Shown: positions 1,388-11,007 of the stretch, piece after piece | Numbering within the stretch: the first letter of the stretch is position 1 | How the letters are laid out: each line of letters opens with the position of its first letter | Source: Bacteroidota bacterium | GTDB lineage: Bacteria; Bacteroidota; Bacteroidia; Flavobacteriales; TMED113 | Direction of reading: 5' to 3' | Assembly (NCBI GenBank): GCA_036158635.1 | Contig: JAYYFR010000029.1 | Span: 13,802-77,801 of the forward strand | Length of the DNA stretch: 64,000 nucleotides | Made by a program: the position numbers and the translations under genes | The notes under the pieces: generated by a model | What the model was told of the DNA's origin: nothing | Databases searched by the model: none | Seen by the model: the letters and a program-made list of their open reading frames with translations, nothing else

Positions 1388-3700
1388 TTATCTTAATTTA
1401 AACTTTTTTACAGCAGTATTATCATTAAAAATTTCAATTTGAATTCCATCAATATCCTTAGTTAATTCTTTACCTAAAATATCAATAACTTTTATAAGTT
1501 TTTTTTGATTATTAGAAACGTCCAAAGTTGATGATATTAAATCATTATTATAATTAAATGATGGAGATTGAATAACAAAATCTCCAAATCCGTTAGGGAC
1601 ACGTGCAAAACCTTGGTCTGTTTGTTGCTCACCAAACACACAATTATCAATTAAATTTAGATTTTGATCAGATAAATATACTGATTCTCCAGAGGCAGAT
1701 AATTTAAATGTAGCATGATTATAATCTCCTTGATCTTCTTCATCATCATCCGCCCAAACAATGAAATATTGGTCGGGGTCTAAAGTAACATCTGGAAAAG
1801 TATATTTTGTTAAATTATTTAGATCATCAGATAGAAAATAACCTGACAAATTTATTGACTCATTTCCTTTATTATAAATCTCAATCCAATCATCAAATTC
1901 TCCAAATTCATCAACAGCAGTAAAATCATTAGAAGCCATAATCTCATTAATAACAATATCACTGAACAAATCTTGATTCATTTTTACTTGATATATATAT
2001 ACATCATGTTCAGCTCCTTCGGGATTATATTTCCTAACACCATTTTTATCAATTGTTTCTATGTAGAATCTAATATATTGACCAGGATCATGAGCAGGAA
2101 TATTGTAGAAATAATAATTCAAATTATTTTCCATTTGCACTTTTTCAAAATGACCTGTAAACCCAGAACCGTAATATAAATTTACTTGATCTACTAAATC
2201 TGGAGAATCTAAAATTACTGAAACTAAAGTTTCATCTAAAGAGCTTGGTTGAGAAAAATTAACACCATTAACAGAATAAATAACACTTTCAAATTCTACG
2301 GTTTCCTGATTAACCTCATCATTTGATAATAAATAAGATTTTCTTTCTTGAAAATATTCTTTTAATTCTTCTACTTCATTTAGAAAATCAACATAAGAAT
2401 ATATCTTTTGGGGATCATTATAAACACTTTGATTAATGAATTCAGCATAATAATCAATTAAATTATTAATATAATTTTCCTCAAAACATTGATTTAAAAT
2501 AGTTCTAAAATGAGCTAAGTACCTTTGTCTAAATTCTGGTATAGCTAACAATTTATTTAAAAGAGCAAAATCAGAGTTATTTTCATTATAAAATGGACTC
2601 CAATTAGTATTACCAAATACTGTATTTCCATCATATTCAATTGGTAATATCCTATCATTAAATTTATCGAAATAAACATAATAATCCATTCCTCCCTTGT
2701 TTATGTAACTGTCATCATCTGAAAATATAATTTCAACAGCTAAATGCCATAAAGCTGCATCTAAATCAAGACGTTCGTTAATATCATTGTACTGATCTTC
2801 ATAATTTTCAACATTTTCAATAGCTATACAAGCATTTACTAAATCTTGCCAAGGATCATTTTTGTATGACTTTTTTAAATTATAATGCTCTAAGTAGTAA
2901 GAAGTGTCGATTCCAAGAAAATTTAGAGAAGATGTACCTGCTCCAAAATTTGGCCCCCCTCCTCCAGGACCCCCTCCTCCAGGACCTCCACCTGTAAAAG
3001 AATCCCCACAACCAGGAGCCTCACTATTTGGGTTTTCAGCTCTCCATCTAGTACACTCATCATCAAAAAACCACTCCCCAGCATGTTTTTTATCTAATTG
3101 TTGAATGTTTGGATAAATACCCCAGTCCTCATCGTTAATCATTAATTTTATGAAGTTTACTTGAGCAGAAGGAATATAATTTCTAGATAATTTTGAAAAA
3201 ATAAATTCTCTTAAAAAACTAGGATCTTGGTAGCAATTATTTAAGTTTAATGTTTCATAACCGTTAATATTTTGATTTGTTTGCCAATCAAGCTCAATAT
3301 TAAATGACTTTTTATCTGTATCAACATTATTACCTCCAGGACCTCCTCCTCCAGGACCTCCTCCTCCAGGACCACCACCATTTTGAGAACCATTTGTATT
3401 TGCATATGAAGTCTGACCTTTAAATCTTACACCAACGTTTTCAAATGTTTCTCCGTCATAAATCAAAGTTGCTGGAATATTAATTTTATCACAATAATTA
3501 TTATGTAAAATGTCCCAGAAATTTGGTTGATCAAAATATAAATAAATAGTTTTTATTTCTGATTGATCATAAAAACCACCTAGATCCAATCCTCCTCTTA
3601 TTAATCTATTTCCATCCTCAGAAAAATAGTACTGACTCGGTAGGTTTTGAGAAAATAAAAAAAATGAGTAAAAAAATGATAAAAAAATAAAACTCTTCAT
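1388..3700 (-). CDS. Secreted CotH-family (atypical kinase fold) protein with a lamin-tail domain and a probable T9SS C-terminal sorting domain
   Basis: Signal peptide. CotH-like blocks are VRFKGQTS...KKSFNIELD...LNLNNCYQDPSFLREFIFSKL...INDEDWGIYPNIQQLDKKH. The LTD-like block is IVINEIMASN...DDWIEIYNKGNESINLSGYFLSDD. The tail LIKVIDILGKE...KKFKLR resembles a Por secretion tail. Two GGGPGGGGPGGGGP insertions are present. Confidence 0.8.
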   Translation of the reverse strand: MKSFIFLSFFYSFFLFSQNLPSQYYFSEDGNRLIRGGLDLGGFYDQSEIKTIYLYFDQPNFWDILHNNYCDKINIPATLIYDGETFENVGVRFKGQTSYANTNGSQNGGGPGGGGPGGGGPGGNNVDTDKKSFNIELDWQTNQNINGYETLNLNNCYQDPSFLREFIFSKLSRNYIPSAQVNFIKLMINDEDWGIYPNIQQLDKKHAGEWFFDDECTRWRAENPNSEAPGCGDSFTGGGPGGGGPGGGGPNFGAGTSSLNFLGIDTSYYLEHYNLKKSYKNDPWQDLVNACIAIENVENYEDQYNDINERLDLDAALWHLAVEIIFSDDDSYINKGGMDYYVYFDKFNDRILPIEYDGNTVFGNTNWSPFYNENNSDFALLNKLLAIPEFRQRYLAHFRTILNQCFEENYINNLIDYYAEFINQSVYNDPQKIYSYVDFLNEVEELKEYFQERKSYLLSNDEVNQETVEFESVIYSVNGVNFSQPSSLDETLVSVILDSPDLVDQVNLYYGSGFTGHFEKVQMENNLNYYFYNIPAHDPGQYIRFYIETIDKNGVRKYNPEGAEHDVYIYQVKMNQDLFSDIVINEIMASNDFTAVDEFGEFDDWIEIYNKGNESINLSGYFLSDDLNNLTKYTFPDVTLDPDQYFIVWADDDEEDQGDYNHATFKLSASGESVYLSDQNLNLIDNCVFGEQQTDQGFARVPNGFGDFVIQSPSFNYNNDLISSTLDVSNNQKKLIKVIDILGKELTKDIDGIQIEIFNDNTAVKKFKLR
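2951..2992 (-). repeat. GC-rich 15-nt tandem coding repeat (GGTCCTGGAGGAGGN) encoding GGGPGGGGPGGGGP, copy B
   Basis: The plus strand reads tggcccccctcctccaggaccccctcctccaggacctccacc. The motif aggacc recurs with period 15 at 2966 and 2981. This is a GC island in an otherwise AT-rich gene. Confidence 0.9.
3332..3379 (-). repeat. GC-rich 15-nt tandem coding repeat (GGTCCTGGAGGAGGA) encoding GGGPGGGGPGGGGPGG, copy A
   Basis: The plus strand reads acctccaggacctcctcctccaggacctcctcctccaggaccaccacc. The motif aggacc recurs at 3338, 3353 and 3368. The repeat is near-identical to copy B, which lies 387 nt (129 codons) away in the same gene. Confidence 0.9.
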
Positions 3701-4502: not shown

Positions 4503-5660
4503 TTAAGAAACTTTTATACAAGATGCTACTTGTTTTGCTTTTTTGACTAAAAAATCTACAGATTCAGGACCATAAGATAAAGCAACTCCCATTCTCCTAA
4601 ATGGTCTACTACTTGGTTTTCCAAATATTTTATAGTCAGTATTTTTAAAACAAGCTGCTTTTTTAAAACCACTAAATAAAGGATCTTTACTGTTTTTTTC
4701 TGCCAAAATAACAGCACTTGCTCCATTTTTTAATAAAGGAATTTCTAAAACTGGTATTCCTAAAATAGCTCTAGCATGTAACTCAAATTCTGAAAAATTT
4801 TGAGTATTAGCTAGAGTAACCATACCTGTATCGTGAGGTCTTGGAGATAATTCAGAAAAAATAGGACCATTTTTAGATATAAAAAACTCAACACCCCAAA
4901 TTCCTGATCCCTCTAAAGATTTTGTAATTTTAGCAGCTATTTTTTGAGCAGAATTTAAATGTTTTTCATTCATATCCATTGGCTGCCAACTTTCTTGGTA
5001 ATCCCCCCTTTCTTGTCGATGACCAATTGGTGGACAAAATAATGTATTACCATTTTGTTGAGTCAGAGTTAATAATGTTATTTCATAATCAAAGTTAACA
5101 AACTCTTCTACTATAACTTCTACTAGATCTCCTCTTGAACCATCGATTGCATAATTCCAAGAATCTTCAATTTCTTCATATTTTTTAATTGTAGATTGGC
5201 CTTTACCAGAACTAGACATTAATGGCTTAACTACACATGGAAAGCCACAATAATCAACTGCACATCTTAACTCATCAAGAGATTTAGCATATTTATACTT
5301 TGCAGTTTTTATATTTAATTCATTTGCAGCTAAATCCCTTATTGATTTTCTATTCATTGTATAATTTGCAGCTTTTGCTGAAGGAACCACTTGTATTCCA
5401 TTATTTTCATACTCATACAACCTTTCAGTTCTTATTGACTCAACTTCTGGTACAATTATATCTGGATTATGTTTTTTTACTATTTTATCTAATTCTTCTC
5501 CATCAAGCATATTAATCACCTCAAATTCATTTGAAACTTGCATTGCAGGTGCATTAAAATAATTATCTACAGCAATTACATGCTGGCCCAATCTCTGACA
5601 AGCAATTACAAATTCTTTACCCAATTCACCAGACCCTAAAAGCAATATTTTTTTTTTCAT
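4503..5660 (-). CDS. purT: Formate-dependent phosphoribosylglycinamide formyltransferase (GAR transformylase 2)
   Basis: The N-terminus [25 protein letters not shown], the ATP-grasp core and the length (385 aa) match PurT. Confidence 0.9.
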
Positions 5661-5770: not shown

Positions 5771-7378
5771 GTGAAATTAAACAAAATTATTCCAATTCTA
5801 ATCCTACCAATATTTATTTTTAGCCAAGAAAAAAATAAATCATTTGAAGAAAAAATAAATTATTATAAATCAAAATTTGAAATTAACTGTGTAACTGAAA
5901 AAGCAACTGATAACAAAGGAAATGGTTTAGAAATTTTATACGGAACCAGAAATTTTAGATCAATTCTTCACGGAATAGCTTATAGAGGAGGTGGGAATAA
6001 TTATTATCACAAAAAAAATAAAAGAGGAAATAAAAACCCATTACCTCAAGACGGGCTTGAGAACTTGTTAGAACAAGATTTCTCTAATATTGTTTATTTA
6101 TACAAAACAAATTGGAATACTGCTCCTCGATTTGTAGAAAAGGGTAACAAAAGACTAGATTATTATCAGTTAAGCGGTAATGACAAAGAATCAAGAGACT
6201 CAATACTTTTAATGGTTTATGAAGCAATAAATAATAATGAGTTAGGACCTATATATTTACATTGTTGGAACGGTTGGCATCAATCGGGATACATTTCAGC
6301 TGTATTATTGAAACAGTTTTGTGGATTTTCGACTCTTCAAAGTTTACATTATTGGGAAGACTGTGCAGATAGTTGGTCGAAAGGGTATGACAGAATAAAA
6401 GATGCAATTATCAATTTTGAACCAATTGAAAAATATAAAATTGAAAAAAGTAAAGCTGATTTAATTTGCCCATGTTACGAAGATCTCAGAAAAGATGACA
6501 CAATTAAATATGTAAGTCAATCCATGGAAGTATTAGATCTCAACCTTCCTTTTCCAAGTGGGGGTTTTGATTTAGAGCCATCAGTATCTACATTTTTAGA
6601 TGAATATGGAAATATGTTAAAGAAAAGGCCTGAAGTAACTATAGAAATTCAAGGTCACTCAGATCATATTGGAGATGAAAATAAAAATAAAATTCTTTCA
6701 GAAAAAAGAGCAAAAAAAGTTCATGATTATTTAATAAAAATTGGTGTAGACTCAACAAAAATTAATTACTATGGCTATGGAGAAACACAACCTATTATTT
6801 ATTGTGATGATAAAAAAAATAAATGTTCAAAGGATGAAATTTCAAAAAATAGACGTGTAACATTTAGAATAAAATCAATAGAGTGTAAAATAAATTTCGA
6901 AAAAGAAAAAGACAATATTCCAAATAAAGATAAAGAATGGTTAAATGAAATATTTGACTTTTTATCATCTGACAAAAATATAAAAATTGAAATTCAGGGT
7001 CATGCAGATGGAGGAACAGGTAGTGATTTTGTAAATCAAGAAATATCTGAAAACCGAGCTAGAAAAGTATATGAATATTTAAAAAATAAGGGTTTTAATA
7101 TTAAAAATGTTTCTTGGAAAGGTTATGGTTCAAAAAAACAAAAATATTATGACACTAGAGACAGAAGAATTGAATTAAATATTACTTATCCAAAAAAAAA
7201 TATTAATCAAACAAAAAGATATCACACAATTAAAAAAGGAGATTCATTAAGCAAAATTGCATTAAAATATTATAATGACTACAATAAAATTTCTAAACTA
7301 ATTAAACTCAATAAAAAAACTTTAAAAAATGGTGAGAGAAGTATTTTGATAGTTGGGGGAAAACTTAGGATAAGATGA
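5771..7378 (+). CDS. Secreted multidomain protein: PTP-like domain with degenerate P-loop, two OmpA-like peptidoglycan-binding domains, and C-terminal LysM
   Basis: GTG start and signal peptide. NFRSILHGIAYRG and LHCWNGWHQSGYISAVLL (HCX5Q at nt 6260) resemble a tyrosine-phosphatase fold. OmpA_C blocks are IEIQGHSDHIGDENKNKILSEKRAKKV...NRRVTFRI and IEIQGHADG...ENRARKV...DRRIELNI. The LysM block is YHTIKKGDSLSKIALKYY. Confidence 0.8.
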   Translation: MKLNKIIPILILPIFIFSQEKNKSFEEKINYYKSKFEINCVTEKATDNKGNGLEILYGTRNFRSILHGIAYRGGGNNYYHKKNKRGNKNPLPQDGLENLLEQDFSNIVYLYKTNWNTAPRFVEKGNKRLDYYQLSGNDKESRDSILLMVYEAINNNELGPIYLHCWNGWHQSGYISAVLLKQFCGFSTLQSLHYWEDCADSWSKGYDRIKDAIINFEPIEKYKIEKSKADLICPCYEDLRKDDTIKYVSQSMEVLDLNLPFPSGGFDLEPSVSTFLDEYGNMLKKRPEVTIEIQGHSDHIGDENKNKILSEKRAKKVHDYLIKIGVDSTKINYYGYGETQPIIYCDDKKNKCSKDEISKNRRVTFRIKSIECKINFEKEKDNIPNKDKEWLNEIFDFLSSDKNIKIEIQGHADGGTGSDFVNQEISENRARKVYEYLKNKGFNIKNVSWKGYGSKKQKYYDTRDRRIELNITYPKKNINQTKRYHTIKKGDSLSKIALKYYNDYNKISKLIKLNKKTLKNGERSILIVGGKLRIR

Positions 7379-9210
7379 TAAAAATATTTTCTTTATTATT
7401 AATTAATATTTCATTTATCTTTTCTCAAGTAGTTGATTCTTCACTCATTTATAAAGAAATTGATTCTCTAACTTTTAAAAAAGAAGTTTTTTATGACTCT
7501 TTACAATTTAGTGAATGTTTTAAAATATCACATAATCCGTTAATTTATGACTCAATCATTAATTTAAAAGCAAGTATATGCGAAGGAACTTTACTTTATT
7601 TAAAAAATAGTTTAAATGAAAAAAGAAAAAAGGAATTTCCAGATTCAATGAAAATTGAAAAAACAACATCTCTATGTTTTTTTCAAAAAACAAATGATTC
7701 AATTAAAGAATTAGGTTGTCACACATTCATAATTGATTTTAAAACAAATTTCCATGTTGTATCACTCATTATTAATAATAGTGATTTTTTAGGAGAAAGT
7801 CGCGGTATATATGCTAAAGGACACAATGCATATTGGGATACAATTGAGAAAAGACATATGAATGCCAACTTTTCAAAAAAATGGGAAAGAAAATTAAATG
7901 TTGAGATATTTAATAGCAAAAATATTCAAATCTTAAATCAGAATTCTGGAGTCAGAATATTTGGGGGGATGACAAAATATGGGAAAGAAAAATCTTTAAG
8001 ATTAATTGCAAGAGAACAATACGGAAAAAAAAGATTCAATGCAGATTTATTCGGTGTTGGAGAAAAAAAATATAAGCAATTTGTTCTTAGGCACTCAGGA
8101 AATGATCATAATAATACGAGATTTAAGGATAGTTTTTTAACTTCAATTATCTCTGAAGAAGGTACTGATGTTCAAAAATCAACTCCTGCCCATCTATTCA
8201 TCAACGCAGAATACTGGGGGGTGTATAACATAAGAGAAAAAATCAACGATCATTACATAATAAACAATTATAATATAAAATCTGACAGTCTTACAATTTT
8301 ACAGGGATTAAAAACAGTTGAATTTGGTAGTAATAAAAGCTATGTCAAATTAAGAAACTATATCAAAAAAAATAATTTAAAAGATAGTATTCATTATCAT
8401 AATGTACAAAAAGAAATGGATACAAGAAATTATATCAATTGGTGGATATTTCAACTTTTTATAGCAAATAATGACGCAAGGGGAAATATTAGATTTTGGA
8501 AATCAGGCTTGTTAGACAATAAGTTTAGATGGATTGTTTATGATACAGACCTAGGTTTTGACTTGGGGGATCATAGAAATAACATGATTAAAAATTTTAC
8601 CTCCCCTTATATGACACATTGGTACAATCCCCAGTGGGCAACCTTTCTCTTAAGAAATTTATTAAAAAATAAAGATTTTGAGACTGATTTTATCAATCAA
8701 TTTTTTTGGTTAAAATCAAGTAAATTAAATACAGAATACTTGACTAATAGAATTGATTGGTTTGAAAATATTTATGATGATGAAATGAAAATTCATTTTA
8801 CAAGATCACCAAATAAATCAATGAGTGACAGATGGTATCATTTAGAAGGAATTGGCAGAAATTATGATTATTGGAAAAAGGAAGTAAATAAATTAAAATT
8901 ATTTGCAATTAAAAGACCTGCTTATTTCCTTAAACATTTAAAACAAAAATTTAAAATTGAAACATATTTATTGAATCTAAATATTGTTGGAAAAGAACAT
9001 GGAACTGTACTCATAAATAAAAATACACTAGAAAAAAGTAATCTCACTACACTGTTTTCAAAAAACCATAAACTTCCAATTAATGTAATACCAAACGAAG
9101 GTTATCAAACAAATTTTAACCAAAAGTTTATTCAAACAAAGAAAGATACTTTAGATATTAATATAACTTTTGAAAAAATACCAAAAAAATATTGGTGGAG
9201 AGAAGACTAA
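7375..9210 (+). CDS. Secreted CotH-family (atypical kinase fold) protein
   Basis: The start overlaps the upstream stop (ATGA). Signal peptide. CotH-like blocks are FGGMTKYGKEKSLRLIAREQYGKKRF...FVLRHSGNDHNNTRFKDSFLTSI...AHLFINAEYWGVYNIREKINDHYI...NNDARGNIRFW. Confidence 0.8.
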   Translation: MIKIFSLLLINISFIFSQVVDSSLIYKEIDSLTFKKEVFYDSLQFSECFKISHNPLIYDSIINLKASICEGTLLYLKNSLNEKRKKEFPDSMKIEKTTSLCFFQKTNDSIKELGCHTFIIDFKTNFHVVSLIINNSDFLGESRGIYAKGHNAYWDTIEKRHMNANFSKKWERKLNVEIFNSKNIQILNQNSGVRIFGGMTKYGKEKSLRLIAREQYGKKRFNADLFGVGEKKYKQFVLRHSGNDHNNTRFKDSFLTSIISEEGTDVQKSTPAHLFINAEYWGVYNIREKINDHYIINNYNIKSDSLTILQGLKTVEFGSNKSYVKLRNYIKKNNLKDSIHYHNVQKEMDTRNYINWWIFQLFIANNDARGNIRFWKSGLLDNKFRWIVYDTDLGFDLGDHRNNMIKNFTSPYMTHWYNPQWATFLLRNLLKNKDFETDFINQFFWLKSSKLNTEYLTNRIDWFENIYDDEMKIHFTRSPNKSMSDRWYHLEGIGRNYDYWKKEVNKLKLFAIKRPAYFLKHLKQKFKIETYLLNLNIVGKEHGTVLINKNTLEKSNLTTLFSKNHKLPINVIPNEGYQTNFNQKFIQTKKDTLDINITFEKIPKKYWWRED

Positions 9211-9225
9211 AAAATATCGTAATAT

Positions 9226-11007
9226 CTAATCAATTATAATAGGAATTTTAAGAACATGGTTTTTTGTTTCTAAATTCACAATATAAGTACCCTTTATTAA
9301 AGTTAAATCAATAGTTTTAACAGAGTTTTTTACATAACCATCTATTAATTCATTATAAACCTCTTTTCCTAATATATTAAATACTCTAATATTAAATTCC
9401 ACTTGATCCTCATTTAAAACTATATTAAATGAACCTTTATTAGGATTTGGATAAAGACTTATATACAAATTCAATTCTTCTTCAATATTGACATTATTGT
9501 AAAAATCTCCACATATTTCTATATTATCGTAATAAGTAAATCCAGAACATGGTGTTCCTGTACAAAAACCAAATAAATTTAATGCATCTAAAACACTTGA
9601 TGCTCCTGCTGAACCATTACTCCAAGCCCAAGAAGAAATCATTTCACCATTGTAATAAAGAGTAATAAGATCATTATCAATATCTATTTCATGACGAACC
9701 TCTACCCAAGTATCATATATAGCATCAAAATATACAAGCTGATCAAGATTTATATAAGATTGATCTCCTGAACTAGCTGAAGCGAAGAAAACCTCAAATG
9801 CCCAATTAGAATTAGCAGCAGCATAATTATGTAACATATTGTAATAAGCTCCAGCATCATCTGTAGAAGGTATATACATATAAAATATCACCTCTCCTGA
9901 TCCAGCATTTATTTCAGGATTAAGATCCCAAACCAAATCATCATTCTGTTCAACAAGAATTGATTGACTATCATCTAAGTAAGTATTCATTGAAAAATCT
10001 ACAACATCAACACCTGAGTTTCCATTATCCCAACCAATCCAATCGCTAGACTGAGAATCAATATTTCCAAGATTATAATTGCCAAATGATTCTAGTATTT
10101 GTTGATTTATACAATCATCCCAAGGATATTCACAAGAGCCATCATCTAGTATCGCATCCGGGTTATAATTAATTGCATTAGATTCTGTACACCCCTCCGT
10201 ATATTCATCAATACATGAATTAAAAGTAAAATCATACCCCTCTTCGTCTGTCCAAGTCCAAATAGCACAGCAACCATCACAATAATCATCTACACAAGTT
10301 GCTCCAGGAAAAGGTGAAGGTGATGTAGAACATGGTGACACAAAACAATCAACACCATAATCACAACTACCATCATCAGTTGTAGCATCAGGATTGTAAT
10401 TACATGCCTCTTCTTCTGTACAGCCTGCAGTACCTTCACTACAATCTCCACAAGATTCAGGACAAATTTCATAAACACTGATACCAAAACCAATTCCGGC
10501 AATAAAATCAGATAAATCTGCATCACAAGCCAGTATTGCAAGTTCAGAACAAGAAGTTCCATATTGTTCTAATATACCGTCTGGATCATCTTCACAATCT
10601 GCAATAACTTCACATGCACCCATGGTAAAATCAAAAATGTTATTACATGCTGCTTCTCCAGAATTACTATATGTAACACCATCGCATCCACAAACAGGGT
10701 CTACAACAGTCATAAACACACAACCAGGAATCAACTCAGCAATACAATCATCTCCTCCTTGATTGCAATCCCATTCTAATATCGTTTCATTACCAAAAGA
10801 ATCCGAATAAATTGTAATTCCAGAAGCTTCAGCTACACAAGAATTAGAGTACTCTAAACCATCACACCCGATTACAGGGTCATATATTAAAGGGCATATA
10901 GCCATAGGTTCAATCCACTCTAGATTAATACAACAATCTCCTATAACTTGAGAGTTTGAAAATTGAAAACTAAGTATTGTAATAAAAAGTAAAAATTTCT
11001 TCAACAT
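9226..11007 (-). CDS. Cysteine-rich T9SS cargo protein with two N-terminal Kazal-like modules, two Cys-bracketed NYNP...DDGSC modules and a beta-sandwich region
   Basis: Signal peptide. Kazal-like blocks are CPLIYDPVIGCDGLEYSNSC and VVDPVCGCDGVTYSNSGEAAC. Cys-bracketed modules are GCTEEEACNYNPDATTDDGSCDY and GCTESNAINYNPDAILDDGSCEY. The Por tail is SLYPNPNKGSFNIVLNE...GTYIVNLETKNHVLKIPIIID. Confidence 0.8.
   Translation of the reverse strand: MLKKFLLFITILSFQFSNSQVIGDCCINLEWIEPMAICPLIYDPVIGCDGLEYSNSCVAEASGITIYSDSFGNETILEWDCNQGGDDCIAELIPGCVFMTVVDPVCGCDGVTYSNSGEAACNNIFDFTMGACEVIADCEDDPDGILEQYGTSCSELAILACDADLSDFIAGIGFGISVYEICPESCGDCSEGTAGCTEEEACNYNPDATTDDGSCDYGVDCFVSPCSTSPSPFPGATCVDDYCDGCCAIWTWTDEEGYDFTFNSCIDEYTEGCTESNAINYNPDAILDDGSCEYPWDDCINQQILESFGNYNLGNIDSQSSDWIGWDNGNSGVDVVDFSMNTYLDDSQSILVEQNDDLVWDLNPEINAGSGEVIFYMYIPSTDDAGAYYNMLHNYAAANSNWAFEVFFASASSGDQSYINLDQLVYFDAIYDTWVEVRHEIDIDNDLITLYYNGEMISSWAWSNGSAGASSVLDALNLFGFCTGTPCSGFTYYDNIEICGDFYNNVNIEEELNLYISLYPNPNKGSFNIVLNEDQVEFNIRVFNILGKEVYNELIDGYVKNSVKTIDLTLIKGTYIVNLETKNHVLKIPIIID

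Follow-up and report, generated by a model that had tools for sequence, protein, structure and literature searches.

The closest described systems each share one element with the locus considered here. Wzc/Wzb (a tyrosine kinase with a low-molecular-weight protein tyrosine phosphatase, PTP) and the PASTA kinases with PP2C set a writer and a candidate eraser side by side and are tied to envelope processes. In the characterised Cys-based phosphatases, which comprise the PTPs and the dual-specificity phosphatases (DSPs), the arginine of the phosphate-binding loop (P-loop) is essential; TpbA keeps this CX5R arginine and is an active phosphatase, and the PFA-DSPs are cytosolic inositol-pyrophosphate phosphatases. 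The eukaryotic protein STYX and the inactive myotubularin-related proteins have the PTP fold, have lost an essential residue (the cysteine typically among those lost) and act by binding. Homologues of the Bacillus kinase CotH are widespread outside spore-formers, and we know of none there with an established function. Here we describe a pair of overlapping open reading frames (ORFs) in a 64,000-nucleotide stretch of contig JAYYFR010000029.1 from a Bacteroidota bacterium (order Flavobacteriales), referred to as the window. ORF1 encodes a PTP-like protein with peptidoglycan-binding domains and a P-loop that lacks the arginine, and ORF2 encodes a CotH-family kinase homologue. Our verdict is a real, undescribed, peptidoglycan-tethered CotH/PTP-like module, and we lean, with modest confidence, towards reading it as a writer (CotH) and an eraser or reader (the PTP-like domain) that would act at the peptidoglycan layer.

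The PTP-like domain of ORF1 and its variant P-loop

ORF1 (5771–7378, forward strand) has a GTG start and encodes 535 residues, as do its orthologues at the related loci L004–L006; from the ORF listing and Pfam it is predicted to be an exported, peptidoglycan-anchored PTP-like protein. An AlphaFold model of its N-terminal domain (about residues 37–240; 5879–6490), built from a 33-sequence alignment, has a predicted local distance difference test score (pLDDT) of 90.7 and a predicted template modelling score (pTM) of 0.86, and the modelled P-loop lies between a strand (161–165) and a helix (171–184). All 18 matches that Foldseek returned from the PDB with E ≤ 0.001 are Cys-based PTP/DSP phosphatases; they include CDC14, PIR1, VHZ (TM 0.70 on target), AtPFA-DSP1, Siw14 and periplasmic TpbA, which is the top structural match (4R0T, E = 4.7e-5). 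Based on this model, we confidently assign the domain to the Cys-based PTP/DSP fold, which is what a preliminary description of the locus, made from the letters, had proposed. By sequence alone the phosphatase call would be marginal, because the Pfam Y_phosphatase2 score is 16–19 bits against a cutoff of 27 (26 of the 33 family members match that model weakly), and its confirmation needed structure prediction. The best sequence-level match, by single-sequence and by profile search, is PFA-DSP1/At1g05000, with a best E of 0.078 for the profile against the PDB.

The variant P-loop (residues 164–173; 6260–6289) reads HCWNGWHQSG and aligns without gaps to HCKRGKHRTG of At1g05000/AtPFA-DSP1. H164-C165 aligns with the HC of the plant protein, and Gln171 stands at the position of the catalytic arginine. 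The other three cationic P-loop residues of PFA-DSP1 are also replaced, by W, N and W, so that K/R/K/R becomes W/N/W/Q overall. The preliminary description was accurate in its account of this region: the peptides NFRSILHGIAYRGGG and LHCWNGWHQSGYISAVLL occur in ORF1, the codon of Cys165 is at 6263–6265, and the arginine is replaced by glutamine in the window protein. We do not file the PTP-like domain as a member of a phosphatase family, because it fails the CX5R arginine test and scores under every Pfam PTP threshold.

An exhaustive HMMER search of 1.84 billion representatives recovered only 340 clusters at E ≤ 0.001, and the PTP-like family is therefore discrete; on these sequence comparisons it stands clearly apart from canonical PTPs, and no Pfam model covers it. 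Conservation figures were taken from 190 domain sequences covering all clades. Fourteen positions are at least 95% conserved: H164, C165, N167, G168, H170 and G173, each of which reaches at least 97%, and R60, Y71, R72, Q182, C184, Y194, W195 and C233. Cys165, His164, His170 and Asn167 are 98–99% conserved across clades with only ~35% identity, the P-loop cysteine being present in 187 of the 190 domains and the preceding histidine in 189, and the aromatic residues at +1 and +4 from the cysteine (W166 and W169) are ~93–95% conserved. Position 171, on the other hand, is free: it is Q in 99 domains, A in 78, S in 3, M in 3 and E in 2, is also occupied by N, T and P, and is never Arg. The near-invariant element of the family is HC[W/Y]NG[W/Y]H. 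Thus the glutamine of the HCX5Q variant holds for the window protein, but HCX5Q is not the conserved motif. Between residues 112 and 160, where the general-acid aspartate would be sought, no Asp reaches 90% conservation; the PFA-DSPs are themselves atypical as to this residue.

The same description had called ORF1 a pseudo-phosphatase. The arginine is indeed missing family-wide, but the near-invariance of Cys165, His164, His170 and Asn167 leaves the label unestablished. Because the P-loop residues are so nearly invariant, we conclude that the pocket is under strong selection; it is a poor fit to a decayed pseudo-enzyme, particularly with an unpaired cysteine in a protein that appears to be exported, and has the look of an active site in use or of a pocket shaped for binding. 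The two other universal cysteines, C184 and C233, probably form a disulfide. One family member, P0266 (690 residues; PTP-like domain, two OmpA and two LysM domains), has HGWNGWQRPP in place of the P-loop and has lost the cysteine, which makes it a rare candidate for a truly degenerate copy.

C-terminal to the PTP-like domain, Pfam finds two OmpA domains and one LysM domain above threshold, in agreement with the architecture first proposed. PF00691 matches in two stretches (E = 2.8e-35; 121 bits against a threshold of 27.2). The first OmpA-like peptidoglycan-binding domain (6551–6874) has its best stretch at residues 261–349 and also gives NCBIfam Pal/YiaD-like matches; the second (6881–7204) corresponds to the second Pfam stretch, and tblastn with this segment recovers the second domain in orthologues. 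Inspection of the sequence shows the motifs GHSD...EKRA and GHAD...ENRA. The LysM domain (PF01476; residues 485–534; 7223–7372) scores 27.1 bits against a cutoff of 20.9. From these modules we infer that ORF1 is tethered to the sacculus through both OmpA domains and LysM. An anti-phage defence reading was rejected: the only PADLOC match is to the generic MotB/OmpA-like domain of ZorB, and ORF2 has none.

The predicted Sec signal peptide of ORF1, MKLNKIIPILILPIFIFS (5771–5824, read by eye), has its probable cleavage site before Gln19, and hydrophobic N-termini are present in all aligned members of the PTP-like family. The three proteins of this region that are predicted to be exported, namely ORF1 (5771–5830), ORF2 (7375–7431) and a second CotH paralogue (3640–3700, reverse strand), all have signal-peptide-like N-termini that end in F-S-Q. 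Bacteroidetes tend to place Gln right after the signal-peptidase I cleavage site; the FSQ endings fit this preference, which argues for export of ORF1 and ORF2 through Sec.

The CotH homologue and its association with the PTP-like gene

ORF2 (7375–9210, forward strand; 611 residues, predicted to be exported) was assigned to the CotH family at the outset, and both Pfam and the predicted fold uphold this. Its CotH kinase domain (PF08757; residues 193–517; 7951–8925) spans profile positions 1–321 of 322 and scores 131.1 bits against a cutoff of 23.8 (E = 8.1e-38). The AlphaFold model, made from an alignment of database homologues, has a pLDDT of 86.5, and its only convincing structural match by Foldseek is B. 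cereus CotH (5JDA/5JD9; E = 1.3e-11, TM 0.75 on target; next match E = 7.5e-3). The model also contains extra beta-rich domains at the N- and C-terminal ends.

Searches of the PDB by sequence, with ORF2 singly and as a 17-sequence profile, matched no CotH entry. The deposited 5JD9 sequence was reached with a B. subtilis CotH sequence as bait and then compared by hhalign with the 17-sequence ORF2 profile, which gave a probability of 90% and an E of 1.5e-6. In this alignment, which begins at residue 262, Asp367 (in NNDARGN) aligns with the catalytic Asp228 of B. subtilis CotH, and Asp390 and Asp392 (in YDTD) align with the metal-binding Asp251/253; this catalytic core lies at 8473–8550. The D228Q and D251A mutants of B. 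subtilis CotH are catalytically inactive (PMC7821199). Asp367 and Asp390 are invariant in alignments of 17 and 28 homologues that are 32–75% identical, as are ~40 further ORF2 positions at the same identity range. For the N-lobe, compared by eye only, EKSLRLIA resembles KKSYHVMF of 5JD9, and K206 and S207 are invariant. The aspartates on which the kinase proposal of the preliminary description depended are thus kept, and ORF2 is, as judged from these alignments, a catalytically intact CotH homologue. With its CotH fold, Pfam match and catalytic aspartates it belongs to the family and is not a spore-coat protein; the ORF listing and Pfam revealed no sporulation genes in the neighbourhood of ORF1/ORF2.

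The start codon of ORF2 overlaps the stop codon of ORF1 in an ATGA at 7375–7378, the 4-nt overlap that had been read at the outset. The pair is flanked upstream by a divergent purT-like gene (4503–5660, reverse strand) and downstream by a convergent gene (9226–11007, reverse strand), and ORF1/ORF2 therefore form a self-contained two-gene unit. The guanine-cytosine (GC) content of the region is ~27%, the same as that of the flanks. A sigma-70 promoter scan at this GC content was uninformative (38 sites against 29 expected), and no terminators were found in the region. The related locus L004, which is 98% identical, places the window in an uncultured marine Flavobacteriales metagenome-assembled genome (MAG).

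A scan of reference genomes found 378 loci that encode the PTP-like domain, and 80 of these were retrieved. The PTP-like-OmpA-OmpA architecture occurs at L001 and L004–L023, in marine Flavobacteriales, Chitinophagales, Saprospirales and other Bacteroidota MAGs, with LysM in addition only in the three closest relatives. In all 20 loci with enough downstream sequence, a CotH gene directly follows the PTP-like/OmpA gene, overlapping it or starting within 3 nt of its end, at CotH identities to ORF2 that fall from 92% to 33%. L084, found from the CotH side, carries the same pair at 35% CotH identity, and two other distant CotH genes are solitary. Overall the pairing is kept in 21 of 22 related loci, distant ones included, which bears out the expectation that it would be conserved in relatives. 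In the Chitinophagales/Saprospirales-type loci L016, L018, L019, L020 and L025, an ORF of 181–184 residues with the motif GLNPSSANEKKLDPT and no assigned function is conserved; it precedes the PTP-like/OmpA gene by one or two ORFs, and both are on the same strand.

The two modules also occur in one polypeptide. HMMER identified single-chain CotH-(LTD)-PTP-like-LysM proteins, where LTD is a Lamin Tail Domain (P0300, P0304, P0319, P0324, P0326 and P0292). Their N-termini resemble signal peptides, the NxDxRGN kinase motif is intact, and the P-loop reads HCWNGWH[Q/M]SG; one of these proteins was found on three separate contigs. Their PTP-like part is 34–38% identical to that of the window and forms a separate clade in a rough neighbour-joining tree, and their CotH part resembles ORF2, not the second CotH of the window. 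Since these fusions have a different domain order and belong to a distant clade, they are independent evidence that the CotH and PTP-like modules work together. No fusion partners other than OmpA, LysM and CotH/LTD occur anywhere in the PTP-like family, and all of these indicate a place at the peptidoglycan layer.

Stand-alone proteins make up most of the PTP-like family. The preliminary description had raised the possibility that the domain docks the kinase; the functional link is backed by the single-chain fusions, but because most members stand alone with no CotH within 10 kb, the domain has a role independent of the kinase and does more than dock it. Neighbourhood clustering found no conserved neighbour around the stand-alone genes; the only recurring ones were two kinds of ORF, in six and in five loci. 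At the Ignavibacteria-type loci L002, L026, L028, L031, L032 and L034, an ORF of 174–209 residues lies directly downstream, resembles a small outer-membrane beta-barrel and weakly matches DUF3575. In L035, L040 and L046 an ORF of 534–545 residues directly follows the stand-alone gene, and L068 and L083 have a nearby member of this ORF family on the other strand. These neighbours hint that stand-alone members too may have an envelope context. A second OmpA-fused clade (L076, L077, L079 and L081, from Crocinitomicaceae, Parvicellaceae and other Flavobacteriales MAGs) has HCWNGWHASG and no adjacent CotH. Gln is found at position 171 in both CotH-linked clades, so that Gln versus Ala tracks CotH linkage in the sampled loci, yet the stand-alone Ignavibacteria proteins also have Gln.

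A proposed peptidoglycan-layer module and its alternatives

We propose that both proteins would be exported through Sec and would work outside the cytoplasm. ORF1 would be held on the sacculus by its two OmpA-like domains and LysM and would present the PTP-fold domain, whose predicted pocket keeps the nucleophilic cysteine, both histidines and the glycine-rich loop but none of the cationic side chains that the ancestral P-loop carried. ORF2 would be a catalytically competent kinase of the CotH type, with translational coupling fixing its amount relative to ORF1. As the writer, CotH may phosphorylate a wall-associated substrate of protein or glycan nature. The phospho-product would be recognised by the tethered PTP-like domain, which would probably turn it over via Cys165 as an atypical eraser or, failing turnover, hold it as a reader or trap. 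Within this module reading, we give a slight edge to an atypical active enzyme that acts through Cys165, in which R60 or R72 might serve as the relocated arginine; a non-catalytic reader or trap comes close behind. In a rough judgement of the role of the PTP-like domain taken by itself, an eraser is a tentative assignment, some other role is an equally tentative one, and a reader or trap is a shade more tentative than either.

Several observations weigh against this proposal. The absence of the arginine throughout the PTP-like family speaks against efficient phosphatase chemistry, unless its part is taken over by R60 or R72. No CotH gene lies within 10 kb of some 55 stand-alone PTP-like genes (~240 residues; from Ignavibacteria, Kapabacteria and Oligoflexia), so the basic function of the domain does not need CotH. 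The OmpA-fused clade with Ala at position 171 (L076–L081) has no CotH link, and L025 is the single exception within the paired clade, having no CotH downstream. On the kinase side, the hhalign match to 5JD9 is confined to the C-lobe, and the nucleotide-binding residues of the N-lobe were compared visually; the signal peptides of ORF1 and ORF2 were likewise judged by inspection of the hydrophobic N-termini. The main mechanistic gap concerns the phosphate donor: the periplasm is generally regarded as lacking adenosine triphosphate (ATP), which leaves the donor for an exported kinase unexplained.

The loss of charge from the P-loop suggests a reading that involves no phosphate at all, in which the PTP-like domain acts, by thiol-dependent catalysis or by lectin-like binding, on a neutral wall substrate such as a peptidoglycan glycan or stem peptide. 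The P-loop amides would then serve as an oxyanion hole, or the two tryptophans would stack on sugars, and CotH would be linked to the domain only via their shared site at the sacculus. Replacement of all four cationic PFA-DSP-type P-loop residues by W, N, W and Q/A is consistent with this, as are the conserved aromatic residues at +1 and +4 (~93–95%), the stand-alone members with no nearby kinase, and the recurrent fusion to OmpA and LysM, which points at peptidoglycan itself. The repeated independent association with a kinase, in operons and in fusions, is however most simply explained by a phosphorylated ligand, and in R60 and R72 the family has two universally conserved residues to which an anion could bind. 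We also know of no described PTP-fold enzyme with thiol or neutral-substrate chemistry, which counts further against this reading, and overall we think it improbable. Somewhat less probable again is that ORF2 is not a kinase here, there being no extracytoplasmic ATP, and that the pair forms a structural or adhesive envelope complex, in line with the reported role of fungal CotH proteins as surface invasins, with ORF1 as its wall anchor. The signal-peptide-like N-termini of both proteins and the extra beta-rich terminal domains of ORF2 would suit such a complex, and CotH homologues of Mucorales are described as surface and virulence proteins. Against it stand the invariance of the catalytic and metal-binding aspartates and of ~40 other positions at 32–75% identity, a pattern expected from selection on catalysis, and the retention of the same catalytic motif in the fusion proteins.

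That the adjacency is incidental, with two unrelated envelope genes sharing one operon, might be suggested by the solitary CotH homologues and by the many solitary PTP-like genes. The two genes nevertheless overlap or abut in 21 of 22 loci across deep divergence, and independent fusions join the modules in a different domain order; the fusions and the conserved coupling have effectively refuted this explanation already, and we give it almost no credence. The writer and eraser-or-reader pair at the peptidoglycan layer is thus the reading that we retain. A more specific claim is doubtful at present, namely that the wall or wall-bound proteins of Gram-negative bacteria undergo regulated phosphorylation outside the cytoplasm by a Sec-exported CotH, which works with a new Arg-less PTP branch that uses a relocated arginine (R60/R72), a new cysteine chemistry or a reader role. 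If it were true, such extracytoplasmic phosphorylation would require a periplasmic phosphate donor, contrary to the usual assumption, and a kinase that truly works outside the cytoplasm would raise the question of how that donor is supplied there. With the module, an orphan CotH kinase gains an obligate partner and is placed at the peptidoglycan layer, which makes it a testable system. The PTP-like family, which has kept the cysteine and discarded the textbook arginine, represents either an experiment of nature on how PTPs catalyse or a phospho-reader of a new type.

Neighbouring genes and comparison with known systems

The window encodes a second CotH paralogue (1388–3700, reverse strand), a protein of 770 residues that is 19% identical to ORF2 and has a Lamin Tail Domain. 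It contains two Gly/Pro-rich inserts (GGGPGGGGPGGGGPGG), its C-terminus resembles a type IX secretion sorting signal that Pfam does not call, and it has the same position and orientation relative to ORF1/ORF2 in L004 and L006. A 66-residue ORF at 2904–3104 (forward strand), rich in PPPPGPPPPGPPP, is the antisense of a Gly/Pro-rich insert of this paralogue and is almost certainly no gene. The convergent gene at 9226–11007 encodes a Cys-rich secreted protein of 593 residues. It matches the protease-inhibitor models Kazal_1 (E = 3.2e-9) and Kazal_2 (E = 1.2e-4), a domain type uncommon among bacteria, and has a C-terminal sorting domain for type IX secretion.

In the literature we found no account of what CotH does in Bacteroidota or of its association with LysM or peptidoglycan partners, and nothing relevant on the motif HC[W/Y]NG[W/Y]H or on bacterial Arg-less pseudophosphatases. 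The catalytic domains of Wzc/Wzb and of the PASTA kinase/PP2C pairs are cytoplasmic, have canonical residues and come from kinase and phosphatase families that are unrelated to those considered here, and their likeness to ORF1/ORF2 lies in the side-by-side arrangement of kinase and phosphatase-like genes. The likeness to Bacillus CotH is closer, since ORF2 shares its Pfam family, its fold and its catalytic and metal-binding aspartates, and the Bacillus cotG-cotH-cotB cluster likewise sets the kinase gene beside a dedicated partner gene (PMC7821199). ORF2 differs in its host, a non-sporulating Gram-negative Bacteroidota, in its predicted signal peptide and extra beta domains, and in its low identity (~12–18%) to B. 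cereus CotH; moreover, its partner is a PTP-fold peptidoglycan-binding protein, whereas the Bacillus substrates CotB and CotG are of the Ser/Lys/Arg-repeat type.

Among phosphatases, PFA-DSP1/At1g05000 and Siw14 (Y_phosphatase2) share with ORF1 the PTP/DSP fold, the pattern H-C-x-x-G-x-H-x-[S/T]-G and an N-terminal NF...[Y/F]R[G/S]G. The window domain differs from the PFA-DSPs in a P-loop without the catalytic arginine and the three other cationic residues, and in being an apparently exported, Cys-rich domain in which C184 and C233 are universal. TpbA of Pseudomonas aeruginosa, the top structural match, is a Cys-based DSP that acts in the periplasm, but it is neither fused to peptidoglycan-binding domains nor paired with a CotH kinase. 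Unlike the eukaryotic pseudophosphatases STYX and the inactive myotubularin-related proteins, the window family keeps the cysteine (98%), and only the arginine is missing. Compared with these systems, we rate as new the Arg-less PTP-fold family and the pairing of a kinase with a PTP-like partner, and as known the CotH family and the PTP fold on which they are built.

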